Part shown: positions 546 to 45,721 of the stretch, piece after piece | Layout of the letters: the number at the start of each line of letters is the position of its first letter | Numbering within the stretch: position 1 is the stretch's first letter | Assembly (NCBI GenBank): GCA_038060895.1 | Contig: JBBTCT010000022.1 | Coordinates: forward strand, 229,301 to 293,300 | Direction of reading: 5' to 3' | From: Planctomycetota bacterium | GTDB taxonomy: Bacteria; Planctomycetota; MHYJ01; WSZJ01 | Length of the DNA: 64,000 bases | Translations under genes and position numbers: made by a program | The notes under the pieces: generated by a model | The model's input: only the letters and a program-made list of their open reading frames with translations | Databases searched by the model: none | Told to the model about the DNA's origin: nothing

Positions 546-2369
546 ATGAGTTCTGCTTCCTGCGCTTGGCAAGGCTCTGTCTCTTCCTTCCTGGAAACTT
601 CGGAGGAACGCGTCCTTTCCGATCTCACCGCGTTTCTGCGCGAAACCGGCGCGCCTCAGATCCTCGCCTGGGATCGCTCTCTCCGCGTCTTGCGAGACCA
701 GCTCCATACGTGTATGCCCGACGCCTCGAACTTCGCACTCGTCCTCGAATTCGAACTTCCGCGAAGCGGTGGCAGGCGCCCGGACTTGATCGTTCTGGAG
801 AACGGCCTCGTCCTCGTCATCGAATTCAAGAATCGCGTAACTGCGGAAGCGGCGGACCTCGCCCAGGTGAAGGGGTACGTGCGCGACCTCGAGGACTACC
901 ACGCCGCTTGCCGCGGCAAGACGCTCGTTCCGATCCTCGTGCCGATCGGGATGGAAGGGGAGCCCGAGGAGCGTGACGGCGTGCGCGTCGTCCCGTCGCG
1001 TCTGTTAGGCAGGGTGATTCGCGAGATCTCCAAAGGCGGCGAGGGGAAGCGCGGCGACGGGGAAGCGTTCGTTCTGGCACCATTTGAGCCTCTCCCCGCT
1101 CTTGTCGACGCCGCACGCCTACTATTCGAGCGCAAGCCTCTCCCTCGTATCAGAGCTGCCGAATCGGCACGCATCCCGGCGACGGTGGCCCGCCTCGAGC
1201 GGCTCGCTCGAGAAGTGCGCGGCACCGGAAGGCGGTCGCTCGCGCTTGTCTCGGGAGTGCCGGGAAGTGGCAAGACGCTTGTGGGTCTTCAACTGGTGCA
1301 CTCGCGCGACCTCGGTGTCCCGGCGGTGTTCCTCTCCGGAAACGGGCCGCTCGTCAACGTTCTCCAGTACGTCCTGGAGAACAAAGAGTTCGTGCGCGAC
1401 ATGAAGAAATTCATTCACGACCACCTCGTGCGTACGACCTCGGCGCCGCGGGAACACGTCGTTGTGTTCGACGAAGCGCAGCGAGCGTGGGACCGAGACC
1501 GTGTGCTCAAGAAGCATCGCGGGGCACTGGCGGACGGCGAGCCGGCTCTTCTCGCGAGGATTGCGACCAAGGTGAGCGACGGATTTGTGCTTGTCGCCCT
1601 GATCGGGACAGGGCAGGAGATCCATGAGGGAGAAGAAGGCGGGATTGCCCAGTGGGTGGGCGCGCTGAAAGAGGTCGGCGGGTGGGATGTGCTTGGACCC
1701 CCCGGGTACCGGGAGGAATTCGTGAAGGCCGGAATCGAATACACGGCGGATGACCTGCTTCATCTCACGGTAGCGCTTCGGAGTCACAGGGCGTCCGACA
1801 CGGCTCTGTGGGCCGGGCTCCTTCTTGAAGGTCGCCTGACCGAAGCGGCGAGCGTCGCTGCCGGCATGCGCGACAACAATTTCGAGATTCTCGGTTCACG
1901 ATCGCTGAACGCTCTTCGCGACTATGCGCGTGAGCGATACAGCAATGAGTCCGGAAAGAGGTTTGGGCTGGTGACTTCGTCGAGATTCCGAAATATCGAC
2001 GAGTACGGAGTGCGAACGCCACCCGCGAAATTCTTTCCGCATGGGCCGTGGTATGAGAGCCATCGTGACGATCCGAAATCCTGTTGTCGCCTCGAGGTCG
2101 CCGAAACGGAATTTGGATGCCAAGGACTGGAGCTAGACTTTCCGATCGTCTGCTGGGGACCGGACCTTGTCTGGCGCGGAGCTCACTGGGAAGTGGTGAT
2201 CAAGCGACGGAATCCCGACGTAAGGAATCCGGCCAAGCTGAGGCTCAACGCATACCGAGTCCTCCTGACGCGCGGCCGAGACGGCATGGCCGTGTTTGTG
2301 CCTCCTGGCCAAGCCGGAGACGCAACCTGGAGTGCACTCTTGGCGGGCGGGATCCGCGAACTGGCTTAG
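546..2369 (+). CDS. DUF2075-type protein: PD-(D/E)xK-like nuclease N-domain + P-loop NTPase + SF1-helicase-like C-terminus
   Basis: 607-aa ORF. 'RRPDLIVLENGLVLVIEFK' gives a D..ExK pattern. Walker A is 'GVPGSGKT' and a Walker B-like motif is 'VVVFDEAQRAW'. The C-terminal 'NAYRVLLTRGRDGMAVFV' is typical of this family. Confidence 0.85.
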   Translation: MSSASCAWQGSVSSFLETSEERVLSDLTAFLRETGAPQILAWDRSLRVLRDQLHTCMPDASNFALVLEFELPRSGGRRPDLIVLENGLVLVIEFKNRVTAEAADLAQVKGYVRDLEDYHAACRGKTLVPILVPIGMEGEPEERDGVRVVPSRLLGRVIREISKGGEGKRGDGEAFVLAPFEPLPALVDAARLLFERKPLPRIRAAESARIPATVARLERLAREVRGTGRRSLALVSGVPGSGKTLVGLQLVHSRDLGVPAVFLSGNGPLVNVLQYVLENKEFVRDMKKFIHDHLVRTTSAPREHVVVFDEAQRAWDRDRVLKKHRGALADGEPALLARIATKVSDGFVLVALIGTGQEIHEGEEGGIAQWVGALKEVGGWDVLGPPGYREEFVKAGIEYTADDLLHLTVALRSHRASDTALWAGLLLEGRLTEAASVAAGMRDNNFEILGSRSLNALRDYARERYSNESGKRFGLVTSSRFRNIDEYGVRTPPAKFFPHGPWYESHRDDPKSCCRLEVAETEFGCQGLELDFPIVCWGPDLVWRGAHWEVVIKRRNPDVRNPAKLRLNAYRVLLTRGRDGMAVFVPPGQAGDATWSALLAGGIRELA

Positions 2370-3815: not shown

Positions 3816-4094
3816 ATGTCAACGCTTCCCGACCACGGCGACTTCTTCGTCAAAACCACGCTCAACGAAGACCTCAAGGCGATTCGCCAGGCCACCGAGA
3901 TGGCGAAGCAGAACCCCTCGAAGCCGGGGCACTACTGGCTGCGGGCGGTGATCAAGGGGGACGGGCCGGAAGGGAAGTTCGAGGTGATCAAGATGTATCA
4001 CGTGGACCTGAACGCGGGGATCGTGGAGATCACGGAGACGATGGAAGGCGAAGAGCGGGCGCGGCGGACGCGCAAGCTGGACGATCTGGGGTAG
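3816..4094 (+). CDS. hypothetical protein
   Basis: 92-aa ORF beginning 5 nt after the methyltransferase stop. Normal amino-acid composition (Lys/Glu-rich). No motif recognised. Confidence 0.55.
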   Translation: MSTLPDHGDFFVKTTLNEDLKAIRQATEMAKQNPSKPGHYWLRAVIKGDGPEGKFEVIKMYHVDLNAGIVEITETMEGEERARRTRKLDDLG

Positions 4095-4120
4095 GCTCGT
4101 TTGCGGCGAGGGTCGAAACG

Positions 4121-4242: not shown

Positions 4243-5214
4243 ATGATCCGACTTGCCGCTCTCCTTCTGCCGTTCCTGGCCGGCGTTTCCGCGGCCCAGT
4301 CGCCGGCGACGCAGGTCACTTTCGAGCTGAACGACGCGTTCGTGAAAGGAAAGGCGCTGGAAGGGGTGGAGGTTTCGCTTCAGCGAAGCCCTGAAGGTCC
4401 TGTCGAGCACTCGGGGTTCACGGGCGCGGGCGGTCGCCTGGTGATCATCGTGGAGCCTGGGAAGTGGCTCGTGTCGTACCGGCTGCGCGGATACGTGCCG
4501 GTCGTGCGGAGCGAGACGGACTTTGTCCGCGGTGCGGCGATCGTGACGACGAGCCTGTCGATGAACCTTGAGAGCGAAGGGAGCGACGGCGGCCGCCGGG
4601 TCCGGATGATCCTGAACTGGGGATCCGGCGCTGACCAGGTCCGCGACCTGGATGCGCACGCGCTGTGTGTGTGCGTGCCGGCCAATCCGCACATCTACTA
4701 CCAGGCGAGGATGCACGAGGCCGGTGCGCACGAGGTGTCGCTGGATGTCGACGACCGGGACGGGGGCGGGCCGGAGACGATCACGCTACGGGATCCCACG
4801 CCGGGACAATATCGGTACTTCGTGCACAACTTCAGCGGCGCGCCGGCGCGGCTCGGCGCTTCGGACGCCGTCGTGCGCGTCCTCTCGGGGGACGAACTGA
4901 TCGGGGAATTCCGCGTGCCGCCCGACGTCGCGGAGCGGGTGTGGCGGCCGTTCAAGGCGATCGAAGTGACGCCCGAGGGAAAAGTCTGGATCGTGCCGTT
5001 CGCGGAGTCCGAACTGAAGCGCGCCGAGGACCGGCGGGCACCTGTCGGGACGTCGACGTTCCGGGAACCGGCGGATGAGGAAGGGGCGCCGGTGCGTGCC
5101 GCCGCGCCGGCGAAGAAGGACAACTCCTCTTCCTTCGGGGTCCCGATCGCCGTACTGGTTGTCGTCCTCATCATCCTGGCCGAATTGTTTTTGCGCCGCA
5201 GGCGCGCTTCCTGA
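4243..5214 (+). CDS. secreted, C-terminally membrane-anchored protein with carboxypeptidase-regulatory-like beta-sandwich region
   Basis: Signal peptide 'MIRLAALLLPFLAGVSAAQS'. C-terminal TM segment plus basic stop-transfer 'IAVLVVVLIILAELFLRRRRAS'. Beta-rich middle region. Confidence 0.75.
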   Translation: MIRLAALLLPFLAGVSAAQSPATQVTFELNDAFVKGKALEGVEVSLQRSPEGPVEHSGFTGAGGRLVIIVEPGKWLVSYRLRGYVPVVRSETDFVRGAAIVTTSLSMNLESEGSDGGRRVRMILNWGSGADQVRDLDAHALCVCVPANPHIYYQARMHEAGAHEVSLDVDDRDGGGPETITLRDPTPGQYRYFVHNFSGAPARLGASDAVVRVLSGDELIGEFRVPPDVAERVWRPFKAIEVTPEGKVWIVPFAESELKRAEDRRAPVGTSTFREPADEEGAPVRAAAPAKKDNSSSFGVPIAVLVVVLIILAELFLRRRRAS

Positions 5215-5269: not shown

Positions 5270-5750
5270 AGGTGAGCGTGCTGCTCACGCTCGGCGGCGT
5301 GGTCGACGAGGTCCTGAAGTAGCCGCGCGCCGACTTCAGGCGCGCACCACGCTTCGAGTACCTGCGAGCCGAGTTCCTTCTGGTCACGGCCGATTTTCTC
5401 CAGCGTCGTCGAGCGCAGCCGCCGGCGAGTGCGTGGCCGTTGATGGCGGCGACGAGGGGTTTGGGGAACGTGAAAGCGGCGCGGAGCGCGTCGTGAAGTG
5501 CCGGGATCAGATCGCGGATGTACGTGGGCCCGCCGTCGGCGAGTTGTTTGATGTCGAGCCCGGCGGAGAATATCGGGCCGTCTGCGGCGAGGACCACGGC
5601 GCGCGACCCGGATTTCGCCTCGCTCGCGAACGCCGCTTCCAGCTCGCGCAGCAGTCCGACGTCCATCGCGTTCGCCTTGCCCTGTCGGAGGCGCAGGATC
5701 GTGATCGCACTGCGGGATTCGGTGGCGAGCATGGAGGTCCATGGAACCAT
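5270..5750 (-). pseudogene. enoyl-CoA hydratase/isomerase (crotonase) remnant with internal deletion and frameshift
   Basis: The N-terminal ~105 aa are intact: 'MLATESRSAITILRLRQGKANAMD...VVLAADGPIFSAGLDI...KPLVAAINGHALAGGC'. The frame then turns to junk. A crotonase-like C-terminal piece 'LEKIGRDQKELGSQVLEAWCAPEVGARLLQDLV' follows in another frame. The oxyanion-hole and catalytic middle is missing. Confidence 0.7.
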
Positions 5751-5816
5751 GCCCGCGGCCGGGGCGCACGCCGTTCGGAATTCTGCGAAATTCCGCTTGA
5801 CATGAAATGAATTATA

Positions 5817-6965
5817 ATGGATCATAATGACATGAAACGATATGAGACGGACTTCGACGCCGCCCTGGCGTTCCTCCAGGTCAGCCGCTCCACCCTGAAC
5901 CGCTGGGTCCACGACGGCAAACTCCCCGCCCGAAAGGTCGGCGGCCAGTGGCGCTTCTCCGAAGAAGACCTCACCAGACTCCGCGACGGATCCGGGGAGC
6001 CCGCCCCGCTCGTCCGCGCTCGAGAAGAGCTGAAGACTTTCCTCGAATCCTCACGGGCCAACCGAAAGGGACCGAAAAACATGAACGCCATCGACACGAA
6101 ATCGCAGCCGCTCGCCGAAGCCCTGGTCTGGGAAGCGCACGACCGCAAGGCCTCCGAGCTGCACCTCCAGCCGAGGAAGGACGGCGTCCACATCTCCGTG
6201 GGCAAAGAAGCGCGGCTCGAGACGATCCGCGTCATTCCGGCGGACCTCGCGCGCGAACTCGAGCAGGCATGGGAAGAAATCGGGCTGCCGTTCGGCGACT
6301 CGGGCATCCGCCGGATCTTCCTCAGTCGCGCCGGGGACCAGGCCGTGAACGAAGTCTCCGTGCTACTCCAGGCCATCGACACCCTCCAGGGGCGCCGCGT
6401 CACGCTACGCTTCATGGGCGGCGGCCGCATCGCCGACCTCGATACCGTCGCGCCGAAAGCCGACGACCGCGCCGTCTTCGAGCGCTGGCTCAAGCGCCCC
6501 AACGGGATCATTCTCTTCTCGGGCCCGACCGGCTCCGGCAAGACGACGACGCTCCTCTCCTGCCTTCAGCATCTCGCGAAGGACGCCGGGCTGGCCGTCT
6601 TCAGCCTCGAGTACCCCGCTTATGTCCGCGTCGATGGCGTCGACCAGGTTGAGGTTCCGAGCGAAGACGGCCCGGTCGTCAAGGCCGCGCTCGAGCGCAT
6701 CATGAGGATGTATCCCAACGCGATCGGAATCTGCGTCGAGACCGAAGAAGCCGCCGCGGCCGCGCTGAACATGGCGATCACGGGGCATCTCGTGCTGATG
6801 CAGGTGCATGCAGAAGAGCACGAGGCGGCGGTGAAGCGCCTCGAGCAGCTCGCAGGCAGGCCGGTCGCGCCGTCCGTGATCGGGGTGATCTCGCAGCGGC
6901 TCAAGCGCGGCGACGCGGGCGGGAAGGTGGCTGAGTACCGCTTCTGGGAGCCTGGCGGGAGATAG
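5817..6965 (+). CDS. excisionase/MerR-type HTH fused to a GspE/PilB-like secretion ATPase core
   Basis: HTH is 'FLQVSRSTLNRWVHDGKLPARKVGGQWRFSEEDL'. Walker A is 'GPTGSGKTTT'. His-box-like motif is 'ITGHLVLMQVHA'. An alternative start is ATG 5832. Confidence 0.85.
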   Translation: MDHNDMKRYETDFDAALAFLQVSRSTLNRWVHDGKLPARKVGGQWRFSEEDLTRLRDGSGEPAPLVRAREELKTFLESSRANRKGPKNMNAIDTKSQPLAEALVWEAHDRKASELHLQPRKDGVHISVGKEARLETIRVIPADLARELEQAWEEIGLPFGDSGIRRIFLSRAGDQAVNEVSVLLQAIDTLQGRRVTLRFMGGGRIADLDTVAPKADDRAVFERWLKRPNGIILFSGPTGSGKTTTLLSCLQHLAKDAGLAVFSLEYPAYVRVDGVDQVEVPSEDGPVVKAALERIMRMYPNAIGICVETEEAAAAALNMAITGHLVLMQVHAEEHEAAVKRLEQLAGRPVAPSVIGVISQRLKRGDAGGKVAEYRFWEPGGR

Positions 6966-42817: not shown

Positions 42818-43285
42818 TTACTCTTTACCGCCGCAGCACTTCTTGTACTTCTTGCCGCTCCCGCAAGGGCACGGATCGTTGCGGCCGAGAGGCGCGCCCG
42901 CATTCTTGAAAGGCGTTCCCTCGGGTTTCGCCTGCTTTTCGAACGCCGCGGTGAGCGCGCCGGCGTAGGTGGCGAGCTGGCGGCCGCCGTAGAGGCGACC
43001 CTCGGATTCCAGGAATTCGAGGAAGGCGCCGACGAGGTGGGGGACGGAGGCGCGCGCTTCGGGTGGAAGGGCAAGCCGGGCGAGGCCGGTGAGGAGGCCG
43101 TTTCTGACGGAGAGTTCGTCGAGATCGCCGGGAGAAACGGAGGCGCACGCCGTTTCCATGAAGGCCATGAGGAGCGGGGCGGCGTCCAGATCGGGGCGTG
43201 CGCGGAAGGGGCGGAAGGGAGTGGACTCGAGGAAGTCAGCGATCCAGGCTTCGACGCTGTCGCGTTCGAACGTTTCCATGGGCAA
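42818..43285 (-). CDS. SEC-C motif protein
   Basis: C-terminal '[18 protein letters not shown]'. Confidence 0.8.
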
Positions 43286-43426
43286 AGCATCGTACGCGCG
43301 GGGCTGCTGTCGCGCGAGTGGCAGGGGGAATAGTCGCCGGAACGCTCAGCCGAGATCGTATAAAATAAGTACTCTGCGCTGCTTAATGATATGCGTGGCT
43401 GGAGTCTGACGCACAGCGAATTTCAA

Positions 43427-43447
43427 CGGGATTATGCACTTGACAAA
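43427..43447. repeat. left terminal inverted repeat CGGGATTATGCACTTGACAAA
   Basis: Exact reverse complement of 45542-45562. Confidence 0.95.
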
Positions 43448-43522
43448 CTTAAAATCCATGAACGAAACTCGTACAGGCATCATGGTTTGCGTCGATTATG
43501 GCCCCGCGATTAAACGAATAAG

Positions 43523-43557
43523 AAAATCGCCAGAGTCCCGTTTCAGGACGCGATTTT
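43523..43557 (-). terminator. intrinsic-terminator-like hairpin after the 42-aa ORF
   Basis: AAAATCGC...GCGATTTT, with inner GTCC/GGAC pairing. On the minus strand it is followed by TTTTCTTATT. Confidence 0.5.
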
Positions 43558-43573
43558 GGCCCGCGACGAGGAT

Positions 43574-43702
43574 TCAGGACTTACGGCGAGGTTTCCCGGC
43601 CTTCTTAGCCCGCTTCAGGGGGGGTGTAGCGAGGGCCTTCCGGATCATGGCGTCGAAGTCCACGCGGGTCACTTCTCGGTGGCTCTCTGGCTTGGGTTTC
43701 AT
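43574..43702 (-). CDS. small basic protein (42 aa), IS cargo
   Basis: 'MKPKPESHREVTRVDFDAMIRKALATPPLKRAKKAGKPRRKS'. SD AAGGAG lies 8 nt upstream and a terminator hairpin lies downstream. The ORF is below the track's size cutoff. Confidence 0.45.
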   Translation of the reverse strand: MKPKPESHREVTRVDFDAMIRKALATPPLKRAKKAGKPRRKS

Positions 43703-43749
43703 CTATCTATCTCCTTGGGGGTTATCAGGCTGATTCCCCTAGAAAGTAT

Positions 43750-43778
43750 TTGACAGCGTCTGCGGCGCAGCTTAGGAT
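43750..43778 (+). promoter_or_regulatory. sigma-70-like promoter TTGACA-N17-TAGGAT
   Basis: -35 at 43750-43755, -10 at 43773-43778. ATG 43786 starts 7 nt after the -10, a leaderless geometry. Confidence 0.5.
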
Positions 43779-43785
43779 TTCCCAG

Positions 43786-44175
43786 ATGCGAAGGAACAAC
43801 AAGATCGTGAGCCTTGGAGAGGAAATCGCGGCGAAGCGCCGGGAGCTGGCGGCGCTTGAGGCCGAACTTGACATCGAAGTCAGGCGGTATAGCGGTGGTC
43901 ATGCGAAGGCTCCACAAGCGGTGGTGACACCGCCTAGACCTGCGGACCCTGAAGAGGTCCTTCTGAGTGATGCCATCATCGCTGGCAAGGTGGTGCCTCT
44001 CTTGGACAGGGAGCCGGATCGGGTGTTCACCGTGGATGATATCACAAGATTGACCGGAGTGCCGCGCCACCTTCTGGTGATGTCTATCGGGCGCATGGTG
44101 CGCTGGCACAAGGTCCACAAAGTGGAAGCTGGCAAGTACAAGGCATCCACGGTTAAGAAAGCGATGGAGGGATAA
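43786..44175 (+). CDS. IS cargo protein: coiled-coil N-terminus + possible winged-helix C-terminus
   Basis: 'MRRNNKIVSLGEEIAAKRRELAALEAELD...FTVDDITRLTGVPRHLLVMSIGRMVRWHKVHKVEAGKYK'. The track starts it at TTG 43750, which coincides with the -35 box. Confidence 0.6.
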   Translation: MRRNNKIVSLGEEIAAKRRELAALEAELDIEVRRYSGGHAKAPQAVVTPPRPADPEEVLLSDAIIAGKVVPLLDREPDRVFTVDDITRLTGVPRHLLVMSIGRMVRWHKVHKVEAGKYKASTVKKAMEG

Positions 44176-44182
44176 AGAAAAA

Positions 44183-44203
44183 CCCTCGGTCGTTGGCCGA
44201 GGG
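44183..44203. other. hairpin CCCTCGG-N7-CCGAGGG between the cargo ORF and the first tRNA
   Basis: Read directly. An A-run lies on the + side and a T-run on the - side, so a terminator function would be leftward only. It could instead be a processing or stability element. Confidence 0.4.
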
Positions 44204-44215
44204 TGTACGTCGGTT

Positions 44216-44307
44216 GGAGAGGTGTCCGAGTGGCTTATGGTGCTGGTTTCCAAAACCAGTGAACGGTGGTGACACACCGTCCGAGGGTTCGACTCCCTCC
44301 CTCTCCG
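44216..44307 (+). tRNA. type II tRNA, Ser-like body (G73, long variable arm), anticodon CCA
   Basis: Manual cloverleaf. Acceptor GGAGAGG/CCTCTCC. D-arm TCC-GAGTGGCTTAT-GGT. Anticodon stem CTGGT/ACCAG with loop TTCCAAA. 23-nt variable arm (ACGGTG-GTGACA-CACCGT). T-arm GAGGG-TTCGACT-CCCTC. Discriminator G. No encoded CCA end. Confidence 0.8.
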
Positions 44308-44325
44308 TTTTGCTGTTCTGAGGCT

Positions 44326-44420
44326 GGCCGGGTGGCGGAACTGGTTTACGCGCCCGACTTGGAATCGGGTGGTTGTCTCTTGACGGGGGCACCATGCGGG
44401 TTCGAATCCCGTCCCGGTCA
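44326..44420 (+). tRNA. type II tRNA, Leu-like body (A73, GGCGGAAYTGGT D-arm), anticodon UGG
   Basis: Manual cloverleaf. Acceptor GGCCGGG/CCCGGTC (one G.U pair). D-arm GCG-GAACTGGTTTA-CGC. Anticodon stem CCCGA/TCGGG with loop CTTGGAA. ~26-nt variable arm. T-arm GCGGG-TTCGAAT-CCCGT. Discriminator A. Confidence 0.75.
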
Positions 44421-44484
44421 GTCTCATTTTTGAAAGATCGAAGCGCCTTTGCGAAGTGCTTGAGGCTGGCGCGTGTCAAAAGAA

Positions 44485-44528
44485 TACAACAAGACTGGGT
44501 GCGTGTCAACTTGCGAAATTGACGCACC
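44485..44528 (-). terminator. hairpin plus T-rich tract downstream of the transposase
   Basis: GGTGCGT(GT)CAA-N9-TTGACGCACC (44498-44528). On the minus strand it is followed by CAGTCTTGTTGTATTCTTTTG. Confidence 0.45.
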
Positions 44529-44541
44529 GCGCCAACTCTGA

Positions 44542-45495
44542 CTAGCGCTTCACATCCCGCTTTGGCGCTTCCAGAGTGAGGCGTTTTCCTTCGGTGCGCT
44601 GGATCGCGTCGAGCATCTTCGCCCCGTCTGACTTCTTCCGGTTGTTGAACGTCCAGAGGTAGGAATCGAGGTACTTCGGAAGGTAGTCATGCCCAACGCC
44701 GTGGAAGATGCCCACGATGGAAGTCTTGAAGTTGGCGAAGAGGCCCTCAACGCCGTTCGTCGTGACGTCCCCACGGGCGTACTCTTCGATGGAGTGGTTG
44801 ACGGTTTCATGCTTCACCATCATCCGCCCTGGCGTGACGTACAGCTTGGATTCGTCTGAGTGAAGCACCGTCCGCTTGGGATCAACGTTCTTCATTACGA
44901 AGCGGCGGATGTCCCGCGCGTTGGCCTTGGGCGCTGGCTTGACGACGGCACGCGCGGACCCTCCACGCTGAACCAGCGCCAGCACGGTTGACTTCTTCAC
45001 GGCCTTGCCACGGCGCGATCCGCGCCCCTTGTGGCCGAAGTAGGTTTCGTCCGCTTCGATGATCCCGGCGAGTGGTGACTTGTCGGAGTTCTGGAGAGCG
45101 TGGCGCACCCGATGGCAGAGAAACCACGCGGTGCGATAACTGCCGAGTTCAAGGTGCCGCTGGATTGCCAGCGCCGAGATTCCTGTCTTGCTGGACGAAA
45201 TGAGGTAGAAGGCCAGCAGCCACTTGTTGAGCGGGATGTGGCTGTCCTCGAAGATCGTGCCAACGGTGCAAGTGAACTGCTTCCGGCACGCCACGCAGAA
45301 CAGCAGCCCCTTGCGAATCTTCTTCTCCGCGTCTGGCTTGAGCCGGGCGACCTTCTCGCGTTCGGTGCAGCCACAGTGCGGGCAAACGGGGCCAGAGGGC
45401 CAGCGCACCGCTTCGATGTAGTTACGCGCGGCGTCCTCGTCTGGGAAGAGAGAGAAGATGTTCGTCAGGCTCACGGCATCGGGCGTCGGGATCAT
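44542..45495 (-). CDS. IS1595-family (ISXO2-like) DDE transposase with N-terminal zinc ribbon
   Basis: 'RWPSGPVCPHCGC...LLFCVACRKQFTCTVGTIFEDSHIPLNKWLLAFYL', 'DETYFG', 'VLHSDESKLY' and 'TNGVEGLFANFK'. SD AAGGAG. Confidence 0.92.
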   Translation of the reverse strand: MIPTPDAVSLTNIFSLFPDEDAARNYIEAVRWPSGPVCPHCGCTEREKVARLKPDAEKKIRKGLLFCVACRKQFTCTVGTIFEDSHIPLNKWLLAFYLISSSKTGISALAIQRHLELGSYRTAWFLCHRVRHALQNSDKSPLAGIIEADETYFGHKGRGSRRGKAVKKSTVLALVQRGGSARAVVKPAPKANARDIRRFVMKNVDPKRTVLHSDESKLYVTPGRMMVKHETVNHSIEEYARGDVTTNGVEGLFANFKTSIVGIFHGVGHDYLPKYLDSYLWTFNNRKKSDGAKMLDAIQRTEGKRLTLEAPKRDVKR

Positions 45496-45520
45496 GGGCG
45501 TCTCCTTTGAGTACGCCTAA

Positions 45521-45549
45521 AAGATACTAGATCATGCTTGTTTTGTCAA
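45521..45549 (-). promoter_or_regulatory. transposase promoter candidate, -35 TTGACA inside the right IR, N17, -10 TATCTT
   Basis: Minus-strand reading gives TTGACA (45549-45544), a 17-nt spacer and TATCTT (45526-45521). Confidence 0.5.
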
Positions 45550-45562
45550 GTGCATAATCCCG
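45542..45562. repeat. right terminal inverted repeat TTTGTCAAGTGCATAATCCCG
   Basis: Exact reverse complement of 43427-43447. Confidence 0.95.
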
Positions 45563-45721
45563 ATTTCAAGCTTAACATTATGATATTAAATAAGTTATGA
45601 CACATTGTCTGCAACGGTTCATTCGGCACGTGCGTTGCAATTCAATCTTGACGCGACCTGATCAACGAACGGTTGCGGCCTTCACTTCCCAAACAACAAC
45701 TCACCGATCGGAGAACGACCC

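Follow-up and report, generated by a model that had tools for sequence, protein, structure and literature searches.

Two protein genes as likely control elements of an anticodon-switched tRNA cassette on an IS1595-family transposon

Insertion sequences (IS) of the IS1595 family are known to carry passenger genes. Here we describe an IS1595-family element in a 64,000-nucleotide stretch of DNA from a Planctomycetota bacterium (GenBank assembly GCA_038060895.1, contig JBBTCT010000022.1, positions 229,301 to 293,300; hereafter the window), whose passengers are a gene for a 42-residue basic protein, a divergent gene for a 129-residue winged-helix protein (orf129), and two tRNAs in which body and anticodon disagree. 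Allo-tRNAs from soil metagenomes include irregular, possibly missense-suppressing tRNA polycistrons, and irregular tRNAs in that work lie near toxin-antitoxin (TA) systems and a transposon-related open reading frame (ORF), with the proposal that some may serve mobile elements and not translation (Mukai et al. 2017, PMC5389517). Streptomyces encodes tRNA-ProX, a proline body with a foreign anticodon, together with a synthetase partner, ProRSx (PMC10404621); the text of that report contains neither 'transpos' nor 'mobile', and a 2024 review of tRNA-driven mistranslation mentions transposons and plasmids nowhere. Our literature search, with most subscription journals outside it, returned nothing that links IS1595 or other insertion sequences to cargo tRNAs, and no leucine-type tRNA with a proline anticodon. 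As far as we have found, the recurrent carriage by transposons of an anticodon-switched tRNA within a conserved control architecture, made up of a small basic protein encoded divergently, a DNA-binding or TA gene upstream and a terminator that faces the antisense strand, is undescribed. The two ORFs of the window are likely control elements of such a cassette.

A bounded element with two protein genes and two tRNAs

The original prediction, made from the letters of the window, had called both ORFs cargo, and they are: because both sit within the ends of a 2.1-kb IS1595-family element, they are its passenger genes (coordinates in Table 1). The 21-bp inverted repeats of this element are perfect (100%, against 0.00 matches expected from shuffles), and the same repeat also bounds a sister element in another of the contigs that we compared, L018. 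Between the ends lie the 42-aa gene, orf129, the two tRNAs and a minus-strand transposase gene, whose product matches Pfam DDE_Tnp_IS1595 (PF12762, 2.3e-29), with an N-terminal Zn_ribbon_IS1595 (PF12760, 5e-12), and NCBIfam transpos_IS1595 (NF033547, 2.3e-57, 194 bits vs a cut-off of 75). G+C content is ~0.68 in the flanks vs 0.52-0.59 within the element. No second copy of the IS or of either ORF occurs within the window, and the exact transposase sequence has a single genomic context. The norm for the IS1595 family is a target-site duplication of 8 bp. The window element has one of 7 bp, the related elements L018 (CAATGTCA), L003, L029, L030 and L058 have 8 bp, and L056 has none. The element ends resemble those of what we take to be the ISNwi1 subgroup of IS1595. 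Because the window repeats are perfect and flanked by a duplication, and because in L018, L003, L029, L030 and L058 the whole cargo-bearing element is flanked by 8-bp duplications at unrelated sites, the element, ORFs and tRNAs included, transposes as one unit.

ORF length means nothing by itself in this G+C-rich DNA, since ORFs of similar size are common. The sister element in L018 is more informative. There the order is the same as in the window: first a minus-strand ORF of 42 aa, next a plus-strand ORF of 132 aa, then an A-run with a hairpin, a tRNA region and the minus-strand transposase gene. The 42-aa proteins are identical at 26/42 residues (dN/dS 0.24, codon-position differences 14/11/22), orf129 and its counterpart share 48% identity (pN 0.33 vs a saturated pS of 0.77, codon-position differences 47/35/76), and the transposases share 74% (dN/dS 0.21, 60/46/132). 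The start positions of both ORFs are kept, and the overlapping ORFs found on the other strand in the window (99 aa plus, 242 aa minus) are broken. The excess of third-position differences, the dN/dS ratios and the broken overlapping ORFs show that both ORFs are real protein-coding genes under purifying selection.

AlphaFold2, given a three-sequence alignment, models the orf129 protein at a mean pLDDT of 78, with a helix at residues 2-36, a low-confidence disordered linker at 38-58 and a compact C-terminal domain at 62-120 (helices 62-75, 83-90 and 94-106, strands 110-114 and 117-120; pLDDT ~90 over 60-125). Foldseek against the PDB returned only winged helices (Zalpha of ZBP1/ADAR1, an archaeal DNA-binding protein, IdeR, PcaR, SelB and MarR), with an rmsd of 1.0-1.5 Å over 56-60 residues and a best E of 1.8e-3. 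This bears out the winged helix that had been read from the sequence, and the modelled domain is best described as a generic winged helix, unassigned to family. An N-terminal coiled coil had been proposed as well. The long helix is indeed modelled, with hydrophobic residues at 7, 10, 14, 21, 24, 28 and 32, and the coiled coil itself is plausible, a feature that a monomer model cannot show.

In Pfam, NCBIfam, PHROGs and PADLOC, orf129 has no above-threshold match. It has a sub-threshold match to Pfam MarR_2 (E 0.066, 13.8 bits vs a cut-off of 27); its relatives match MarR_2 (9.6e-6) and AbiEi_4 (1.7e-4) in Pfam, and the winged helix of one of them, P0003, matches PADLOC AbiEi (3.4e-7). The homologues whose search had been suggested do exist. 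By exhaustive HMMER search the family comprises 3 clusters, orf129 included, among 1.84 billion representatives. P0002 (132 aa, 48% identity, E 2e-27) comes from contigs L018-L023, within the sister IS and beside its tRNA region, and P0003 (220 aa, 28% identity, E 1e-5) comes from a phage-like replication region with neither IS nor tRNA. A word-indexed protein search, with orf129 or with the 3-member alignment, found nothing beyond these three members, and the exact protein is on record from a Planctomycetota MAG. orf129 represents a new winged-helix family.

The 42-aa protein is modelled by AlphaFold2 as a single helix (16-25) between basic, proline-containing tails, and has no match above threshold in the same four databases. 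The ORF, its AAGGAG-N8-ATG start and the hairpin with T-tract behind it are all present as had been reported. This hairpin is two-tiered on RNAfold, with AAAATCGC...GCGATTTT and an inner GTCC/GGAC, then CTTATTCGTTT, and a simple terminator scan missed it because its stem is interrupted. The inner hairpin and the TTATTCGTTT tract are kept in L018; AAGGAG is not kept there, and the L018 ortholog starts with TTG. For the 42-aa gene, a consensus scan of the control region turned up no convincing sigma-70-type site on the minus strand.

Of the two tRNAs, the first joins a Ser-like body to a Trp anticodon, and the second a Leu-like body to a Pro anticodon. Rfam scores them at 48.8 and 55.5 bits vs a gathering threshold of 29 (RF00005), both align to the standard 7/5 acceptor/T-stem model, and their variable regions measure ~21-23 nt; the D arm of tRNA 2 reads GCGGAAC-UGG-UUUACGC. 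The 5' 28 nt of tRNA 1 are 89% identical to an E. coli tRNA-Ser gene at an uninformative E of 10, and its 'Ser-like' label otherwise rests on textbook identity rules; tRNA 2 has no BLAST match in E. coli genomes. In E. coli, LeuRS and SerRS ignore the anticodon. By those rules tRNA 2 would insert Leu at Pro codons and tRNA 1 would insert Ser at Trp codons, and ProRS could also charge tRNA 2 through G35, G36 and A73. The window anticodons CCA and UGG are mutually complementary and UGG also complements the CCA 3' end of tRNAs, perhaps by coincidence.

Recurrence of the cassette around a UGG tRNA

The cassette is not confined to the window and its sister. We collected related loci via the transposase from GTDB genomes and JGI metagenomes, and L003, L004, L029, L030, L033 and L034 (transposase identity 41-44%) each have an 87-93-nt tRNA that ARAGORN reports as 'Pro (tgg)', as does L043, in which the transposase is represented by 48 N-terminal residues alone. 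These tRNA-bearing relatives share inverted repeats of the type ..A(T/C)TATGCACTT(G/C)(A/G)CAAA and a 50-82-aa basic ORF, encoded opposite the tRNA strand and divergent from the gene(s) preceding the tRNA. A profile of this small ORF retrieves >50 clusters of 40-113-aa proteins with the consensus SLAPLDFETAVRAAMATGKPPKAKK..KRKAKK, nameless or 'hypothetical protein' in their sources and without a Pfam domain. Co-occurrence with the tRNAs, which the original prediction had put forward as a check, is borne out for the small ORF: of 37 transposase-anchored loci, the 7 with a tRNA(UGG), and no others, have a profile hit at E<=1e-3. We also looked up the contigs that encode eight proteins of the small-ORF family, and the same layout appeared in L051, L054/L055, L056, L057 and L058/L059. 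Seven of the ten loci fetched in this way have the tRNA, plus the transposase where the contig is long enough; L050 is cut by its contig end, and in L052/L053 the small ORF is accompanied by neither transposase nor tRNA.

In this layout a small ORF diverges from one or more variable genes, which read into a tRNA(UGG) on the same strand; beyond it a 72-93-aa helix-turn-helix (HTH) gene faces the tRNA, and the IS1595 transposase gene diverges from that. The small ORF keeps its position and orientation in the window, L018, L003, L029, L030, L051, L054, L056, L057 and L058. At least ten independent elements in Planctomycetota and Alphaproteobacteria have the layout, and the hosts of the recurring UGG tRNA elements are Alphaproteobacteria and other metagenomic bacteria. 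The small-ORF-like gene of L002/L031/L032 adjoins the transposase gene, with a divergent 197-aa gene nearby. Against a small-ORF profile built without the window sequence, the window 42-aa ORF reaches 12.3 bits (E 0.057 in a set of 7,520 segments), and there is no match for the L018 42-aa ORF; by eye, the L031 sequence FHEAVRRAMTTPPSPRKPKRK bridges the motifs of the 42-aa ORF and of the small-ORF family. This weak match, the bridging sequence and the identical position and orientation together suggest that the 42-aa protein belongs, as a divergent member, with the unnamed small proteins of related IS, which it resembles weakly by sequence and clearly by position.

UGG tRNA homologues occur in nine further elements, and the ten parsed sequences, window tRNA 2 included and each from a distinct element, are all 7/5 cloverleaves with A73, an invariant UGG and a GCGGAA..GG..ACGC D arm (10/10). 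Many compensatory changes lie in their acceptor, anticodon and T stems; in the anticodon loop, C33 occurs in two and position 37 is A, C or G. The invariant UGG, A73 and the compensatory stem changes across these ten argue that the UGG tRNA is under selection. The L029 tRNA aligns over its full length, at ~70%, with genes that carry a tRNA-Leu annotation in phages. Of the Ser-like tRNA of L018 only a decayed remnant with the acceptor-stem halves is left, and the Leu-like tRNA there keeps all stems, has lost G18G19, has the T-loop UGCGAGG and goes undetected by ARAGORN and Rfam. Both partners of its D-loop/T-loop contact have changed together (L018:5425-5542 and 5543-5640 region). L058 has a second odd tRNA (4738-4812, minus strand) to which ARAGORN gives a four-base anticodon, 'acca', with CCA in the anticodon loop as in tRNA 1.

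What precedes the tRNA varies. The slot that orf129 fills in the window holds unrelated genes elsewhere (Table 1), which means that the orf129 family is not itself conserved. The slot proteins of L003, L029, L054, L057 and L058 read like the same helix-linker-winged-helix arrangement as orf129, and L030 and L051 have a TA pair in the slot. The recurrent theme appears to be a tRNA at the 3' end of an operon for a DNA-binding protein or a TA pair. TA operons are classically autorepressed, and by analogy this suggests that the slot genes are functionally equivalent, each supplying a tightly autoregulated operon ahead of the tRNA.

Several further features of these elements are recorded here for themselves. 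The 72-93-aa HTH protein between the tRNA and transposase genes is conserved (..ATDELL.GISH..LADALG.SV.TVRQARLDEGAKARR.PP.GW..), is divergent from the transposase gene and is absent in the window and L018. In the latter two, the transposase gene is inverted relative to the alphaproteobacterial elements, and sequences like the right inverted repeat stand just 3' of tRNA 2 (window 44427-44465, TTTGCGAAGTGCTTGAGG; L018:5645-5661, TTTTTCAAGAACATAAT, 14/17 matching); the cargo part of these two elements may once have been a separately bounded unit. L018 also has, at 5843-6565, a pair of additional passenger ORFs that lie between its tRNA and transposase genes, encode 163 and 76 aa, match nothing in Pfam and are preceded by a promoter-like site of their own (5798-5825). 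L050, L051, L054 and L057 have differing small ORFs, and three of them differ in slot gene, L050 being cut by its contig end, yet all lie near an Aminotran_3 gene (argD-like; 1.9 kb off in L050), followed in three loci by an OTCace gene (argF-like) and with GcrA on the other side in two. This common flank suggests that the elements favor one target, or else that they have long been inherited vertically at a single chromosomal site.

On plasmids the picture differs. A tblastn search of 72,556 plasmids gave no match for a small-ORF protein used as query, and plasmid IS1595 relatives at ~40% transposase identity have neither tRNA nor small ORF. Two such elements from cultured bacteria, L061 (Roseomonas marmotae p1318-1) and L062 (Methylobacterium oryzae pMOC1), have a hypothetical gene and a PIN/VapC toxin as passengers and no tRNA. 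Passenger genes in this IS group are of many kinds and often have to do with toxins.

Codon usage offers no more than a hint. Transposase genes of the 10 tRNA-bearing elements use CCA at 30/112 Pro codons overall and at 1/33 of those in four conserved Pro columns, with CCT at 1; in 16 relatives without the tRNA, CCA makes up 14/126 overall and 5/38 at the same columns. CCA could thus be avoided at conserved prolines in tRNA-bearing transposases, a hint from sequences that are not independent. The small ORFs have CCA at a conserved second proline in 4/12. A role for the small ORF as a tRNA sensor via its conserved prolines was considered and dropped, as 13 small ORFs show nothing unusual in their Pro codons (CCG 30, CCC 19, CCA 15, CCT 8).

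Expression signals, proposed mechanism and rival explanations

The start codons of the divergent 42-aa gene and orf129 are 83 bp apart (43703-43785). The TTGACA-N17-TAGGAT promoter that had been proposed for orf129 is found there by consensus scan, one of 3 promoter-like sites in 3 kb vs 0.7 expected from shuffles. Because its -10 hexamer ends 7 nt upstream of ATG 43786, the orf129 mRNA is probably leaderless or near-leaderless. In L018 the hexamers TTGATC-17-TAGGCT occupy the equivalent place, 8 nt before its ATG (by-eye alignment). Two palindromes of low statistical weight serve as candidate operators in the window, and a different palindrome, TAGGC-T-GCCTA, spans the -10/start region of L018. 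No repeat common to the control region and the IS ends was found in the window element.

Downstream, orf129 ends 39 nt upstream of the tRNAs. A CCCTCGG/CCGAGGG hairpin had been noted in between, and it is present; its polarity needs one correction. On the plus strand an A-run precedes it and no U-tract follows, and on the minus strand it reads ACCCTCGGCCAACGACCGAGGGT then TTTTTCTTT, the form of an intrinsic terminator predicted to end minus-strand transcripts and not the orf129 transcript. A consensus scan found no plus-strand promoter or terminator within 43779-44214. In seven of the ten related tRNA-bearing elements under comparison, a sense terminator is likewise lacking between the protein gene upstream and the tRNA. 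With nothing predicted to stop the orf129 transcript before the tRNAs, the earlier proposal that the tRNAs have no promoter of their own and are co-transcribed with orf129 is supported, and co-transcription of orf129 with both tRNAs is the simplest reading.

The same terminator criterion was applied to 11 elements, the window included. An antisense-facing terminator lies between slot gene and tRNA in 8/11 (window, L018, L003, L029, L051, L054, L056 and L057), and a sense-facing one in L003 only, formed by the same hairpin. The tRNA is downstream of a same-strand protein gene in 10/11 elements; the gap from the slot stop codon to the tRNA is 31-270 nt (<=178 nt in all but L056) and nearly always opens with an A-run, then a G+C-rich hairpin. 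On the far side of the tRNAs, the window has an antisense promoter-like site, as do L018 (TTGACT-17-TAGAAT), L003 and L029, and in the alphaproteobacterial elements the HTH gene is transcribed toward the tRNA. These signals predict an RNA antisense to the tRNA(s) that ends just short of the upstream protein gene, and this design, with antisense transcription across the tRNA that stops ahead of the slot gene, appears to be conserved.

We favor, at a probability of about 0.55, a reading in which orf129 and the tRNAs form an autoregulated, probably leaderless operon of a winged helix-turn-helix (wHTH) protein and tRNA, with the 42-aa protein as a conserved accessory peptide. We infer DNA binding, autoregulation and co-transcription, as well as the antisense RNA, the absence of a leader and whatever effect the tRNAs may have on decoding, and regulation of tRNA expression by orf129 is a reasonable inference. 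The orf129 protein would dimerise through its N-terminal amphipathic helix, bind the divergent control region and repress its own promoter. The transcript from that promoter (43750-43778) would continue into both long-arm tRNAs, ordinary tRNA processing would release them, and autorepression would keep these potentially harmful tRNAs at a low, buffered dose. The convergent antisense transcript could be a second brake. The 42-aa protein is most likely a nucleic-acid-binding accessory factor for the cargo promoter or for transposition, and not a toxin.

Several observations weigh against this model. An alternative orf129 start, GTG 43807 with AGGA 11 nt upstream, would give a leadered mRNA. The L018 promoter hexamers are weaker and fall under the scan threshold, and the 5-bp-arm candidate operators are not kept there. 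The L018 protein genes are under purifying selection though its tRNAs look degenerate, and thus the proteins may do their work without a functional tRNA. In the assembled part of L002, L031 and L032 no tRNA was detected, BLASTP finds no sequence similarity to orf129 among the slot genes of the other (alphaproteobacterial) elements, and the window 42-aa protein matches the wider small-ORF family weakly. Every sequence compared is, in addition, a metagenome assembly.

Some of these observations would suit the main rival, a different role for the two proteins, in which both act on transposition, at the IS ends, the transposase promoter or the transpososome, and the tRNAs are independent downstream cargo. 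The small ORF adjoins the left inverted repeat, and since L002/L031 have a small-ORF-like gene and no tRNA was found in them, it goes with the IS clade more than with the tRNA; selection on both genes in L018 despite degenerate-looking tRNAs points the same way, and in the window and L018, which lack the 72-93-aa HTH gene, another protein could have assumed its role. We consider this possible and yet doubtful, given the short distance from orf129 to the tRNAs with no sense terminator intervening, the constant position of the orf129 slot directly upstream of the tRNA, the lack of any repeat found in common between the control region and the IS ends, and the IS1595 relatives at ~40% transposase identity that do without both genes. 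A further reading, rather unlikely in our view, gives the tRNAs the leading part: the element would be a self-limiting transposon cassette for mis-decoding tRNAs (Pro to Leu, Trp to Ser), with the tRNA as the harmful or addictive principle and the ORFs as its keepers, and the wHTH autorepressor or TA operon, the antisense RNA and the small basic protein would then be layers of dose control.

It is also conceivable that the winged helix binds RNA, be it the tRNAs, their precursor or a sense/antisense duplex, and sequesters, stabilises or delivers it. The best Foldseek matches include Zalpha of ZBP1/ADAR1 and a SelB domain bound to SECIS RNA, and the predicted convergent transcription would yield double-stranded RNA over the tRNAs. 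The Foldseek E-values are weak, however (best 1.8e-3), the DNA-binding repressors IdeR, PcaR, MarR and ArsR score about equally, the profile hits are to DNA-binding families (MarR_2, AbiEi_4, TrmB, Rrf2), and no layout is commoner among dimeric bacterial repressors than a helix plus winged helix, all of which makes RNA binding improbable. The addiction module of two proteins that had been suggested fares worse still. Related IS1595 cargo does include DUF4258 + XRE (L030/L051) and PIN/VapC (on the Roseomonas and Methylobacterium plasmids), and the P0003 winged helix resembles the DNA-binding domain of the AbiEi antitoxin. A toxin-antitoxin pair that stabilises the element is nonetheless very improbable here: the genes are divergent and not in one operon, searches of Pfam, NCBIfam, PHROGs and PADLOC gave no toxin or antitoxin model for either protein, the 42-aa protein consists of one helix flanked by basic tails, and there is no fixed pair, since the orf129 slot is swapped for unrelated genes as the small ORF stays. 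That one or both ORFs are chance frames in G+C-rich DNA is an idea to which the many overlapping ORFs of similar length nearby, and the near lack of orf129 relatives in so large a search, lend some color. It is effectively refuted by the codon-position pattern and dN/dS against L018, by the starts and gene order conserved there, by the alternative-strand ORFs broken there and by the confident winged-helix model.

Other genes stand beyond the inverted repeats of the window element. To the right of the IS (~1.1-2.1 kb from its end; L001:216-1206) there is a Zeta-toxin / PhdYeFM-antitoxin gene pair, and to the left a gene for a SEC-C-motif protein (42818-43285).

Table 1. Coordinates of features in the window and in related elements (locus handles precede positions outside the window)
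Feature	Position	Strand	Basis or remark
IS1595-family element	43427-45562 (2,136 bp)		Inverted repeats, target duplication and transposase
Target-site duplication ATTTCAA, left copy	43420-43426		Directly abuts left repeat
Left inverted repeat CGGGATTATGCACTTGACAAA	43427-43447	+	21/21 complementary to 45542-45562
Terminator-like hairpin + T-rich tract, 3' of 42-aa gene	43557-43523	-	RNAfold of minus strand
42-aa basic protein gene, Lys/Arg/Pro-rich tails	43574-43702 (ATG 43702)	-	L018 ortholog, AlphaFold2
Shine-Dalgarno AAGGAG (plus strand CTCCTT)	43711-43716	-	8 nt upstream of ATG 43702
Candidate operator, palindrome ATCAG-G-CTGAT	43724-43734		Arms 5 bp, low statistical weight
Sigma-70-type promoter TTGACA-17-TAGGAT (predicted)	43750-43778	+	Consensus scan, 10/12 matches
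Candidate operator, palindrome CTGCG-G-CGCAG	43760-43770		Within promoter spacer; arms 5 bp, low statistical weight
orf129, 129 aa	43786-44175	+	AlphaFold2, Foldseek, homologues P0002/P0003
Predicted intrinsic terminator, hairpin CCCTCGG/CCGAGGG	44182-44204	-	T-run on minus strand
tRNA 1, type II, Ser-like body (G73, long variable arm), anticodon CCA (Trp codon)	44216-44307	+	ARAGORN, Rfam
tRNA 2, type II, Leu-like body (A73), anticodon UGG (Pro codons)	44326-44420	+	ARAGORN, Rfam
Promoter-like site TTGACA-17-TATTCT, 3' of tRNAs	44509-44481	-	Consensus match only
IS1595-family transposase gene, 317 aa	44542-45495	-	Pfam and NCBIfam matches
Transposase promoter-like site TTGACA-17-TATCTT	45549-45521	-	Overlaps right inverted repeat 45542-45562
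Target-site duplication ATTTCAA, right copy	45563-45569		Directly abuts right repeat
Terminator / antisense promoter-like site	L018:5407-5424 / 5660-5688		
Terminator / antisense promoter-like site	L003:2076-2090 / 2324-2351		
Terminator / antisense promoter-like site	L029:3978-4008 / 4082-4110		
UGG tRNAs	L003:2199-2291, L004:2660-2746, L029:4011-4097, L030:1659-1748		Leu-type
UGG tRNAs	L051:2948-3035, L054:3278-3364, L056:2398-2488		Leu-type
UGG tRNAs	L057:3292-3374, L058:3197-3285, L018:~5543-5640		Leu-type
Slot gene, L003			121-aa protein
Slot gene, L029			~157-aa protein
Slot genes, L054 and L058			150- and 158-aa proteins, mutually related
Slot gene, L057			128 aa, weak Penicillinase_R-type matches at 74-123
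Slot gene, L056			374-aa protein
Slot genes, L030 and L051	L030:762-1627, L051:3068-3815		DUF4258 toxin (34.6 bits, cut-off 25) + XRE/MqsA-like antitoxin
72-93-aa HTH gene	L003:2352-2633, L029:4172-4399, L030:~1762-1990, L051:2709-2933		
72-93-aa HTH gene	L054:2966-3247, L056:2162-2380, L057:2864-3097, L058:2910-3143		

Comparison with described systems

If the tRNAs are charged according to their bodies, the element would act as a mobile source from which regulated mistranslation spreads horizontally, and the two ORFs would offer experimental on/off handles for it. If the tRNAs are not used in translation, the cassette would instead suggest that tRNA-like RNAs play a part in transposon biology outside translation. 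In either case, the 2.1-kb element consists of defined, small, synthesizable parts that lend themselves to direct test.

The protein genes have likenesses among known regulators and TA systems. In common with MarR-type and AbiEi N-terminal-domain autorepressors, orf129 has a winged helix encoded beside its own promoter, and its sub-threshold matches are to MarR_2 and AbiEi_4. MarR differs in domain order from orf129, whose long helix is N-terminal and whose winged helix follows a long disordered linker at the C terminus; unlike AbiEi, orf129 has no AbiEi C-terminal domain, and no cognate toxin gene is present. The cassette also recalls type II TA cargo operons, as the orf129 slot is filled by a DUF4258 toxin and XRE antitoxin in L030 and L051, but orf129 and the 42-aa gene are divergent, lack any signature of a toxin and are not swapped together.

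On the side of the tRNAs, the likeness to the irregular tRNAs of soil metagenomes (PMC5389517) is that body and anticodon disagree, that they are metagenomic and sometimes polycistronic, and that they lie near TA or transposon genes. The allo-tRNAs of that study have 8/4 or 9/3 acceptor/T-stems and serine identity, whereas the window tRNAs are 7/5 with Leu- or Ser-type bodies. The same study describes no defined IS boundaries, small ORF or winged-helix gene, and 'UGG' is absent in its main text. Streptomyces tRNA-ProX (PMC10404621) is likewise a natural anticodon-switched tRNA beside a dedicated protein gene, and is thought to be conditionally expressed. Unlike tRNA-ProX, window tRNA 2 puts a proline anticodon on a Leu-type body, has a wHTH protein and a 42-aa peptide as its partners, and sits in a transposon. 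As to that transposon, its zinc-ribbon transposase, short repeats and genes between the ends are those of the IS1595 family with passengers, and the duplications at this element and its relatives measure 7-8 bp. What sets it apart from the known IS1595 passengers is a recurrent module of a small basic ORF, a variable, often winged-helix-like gene and an anticodon-switched long-arm tRNA.

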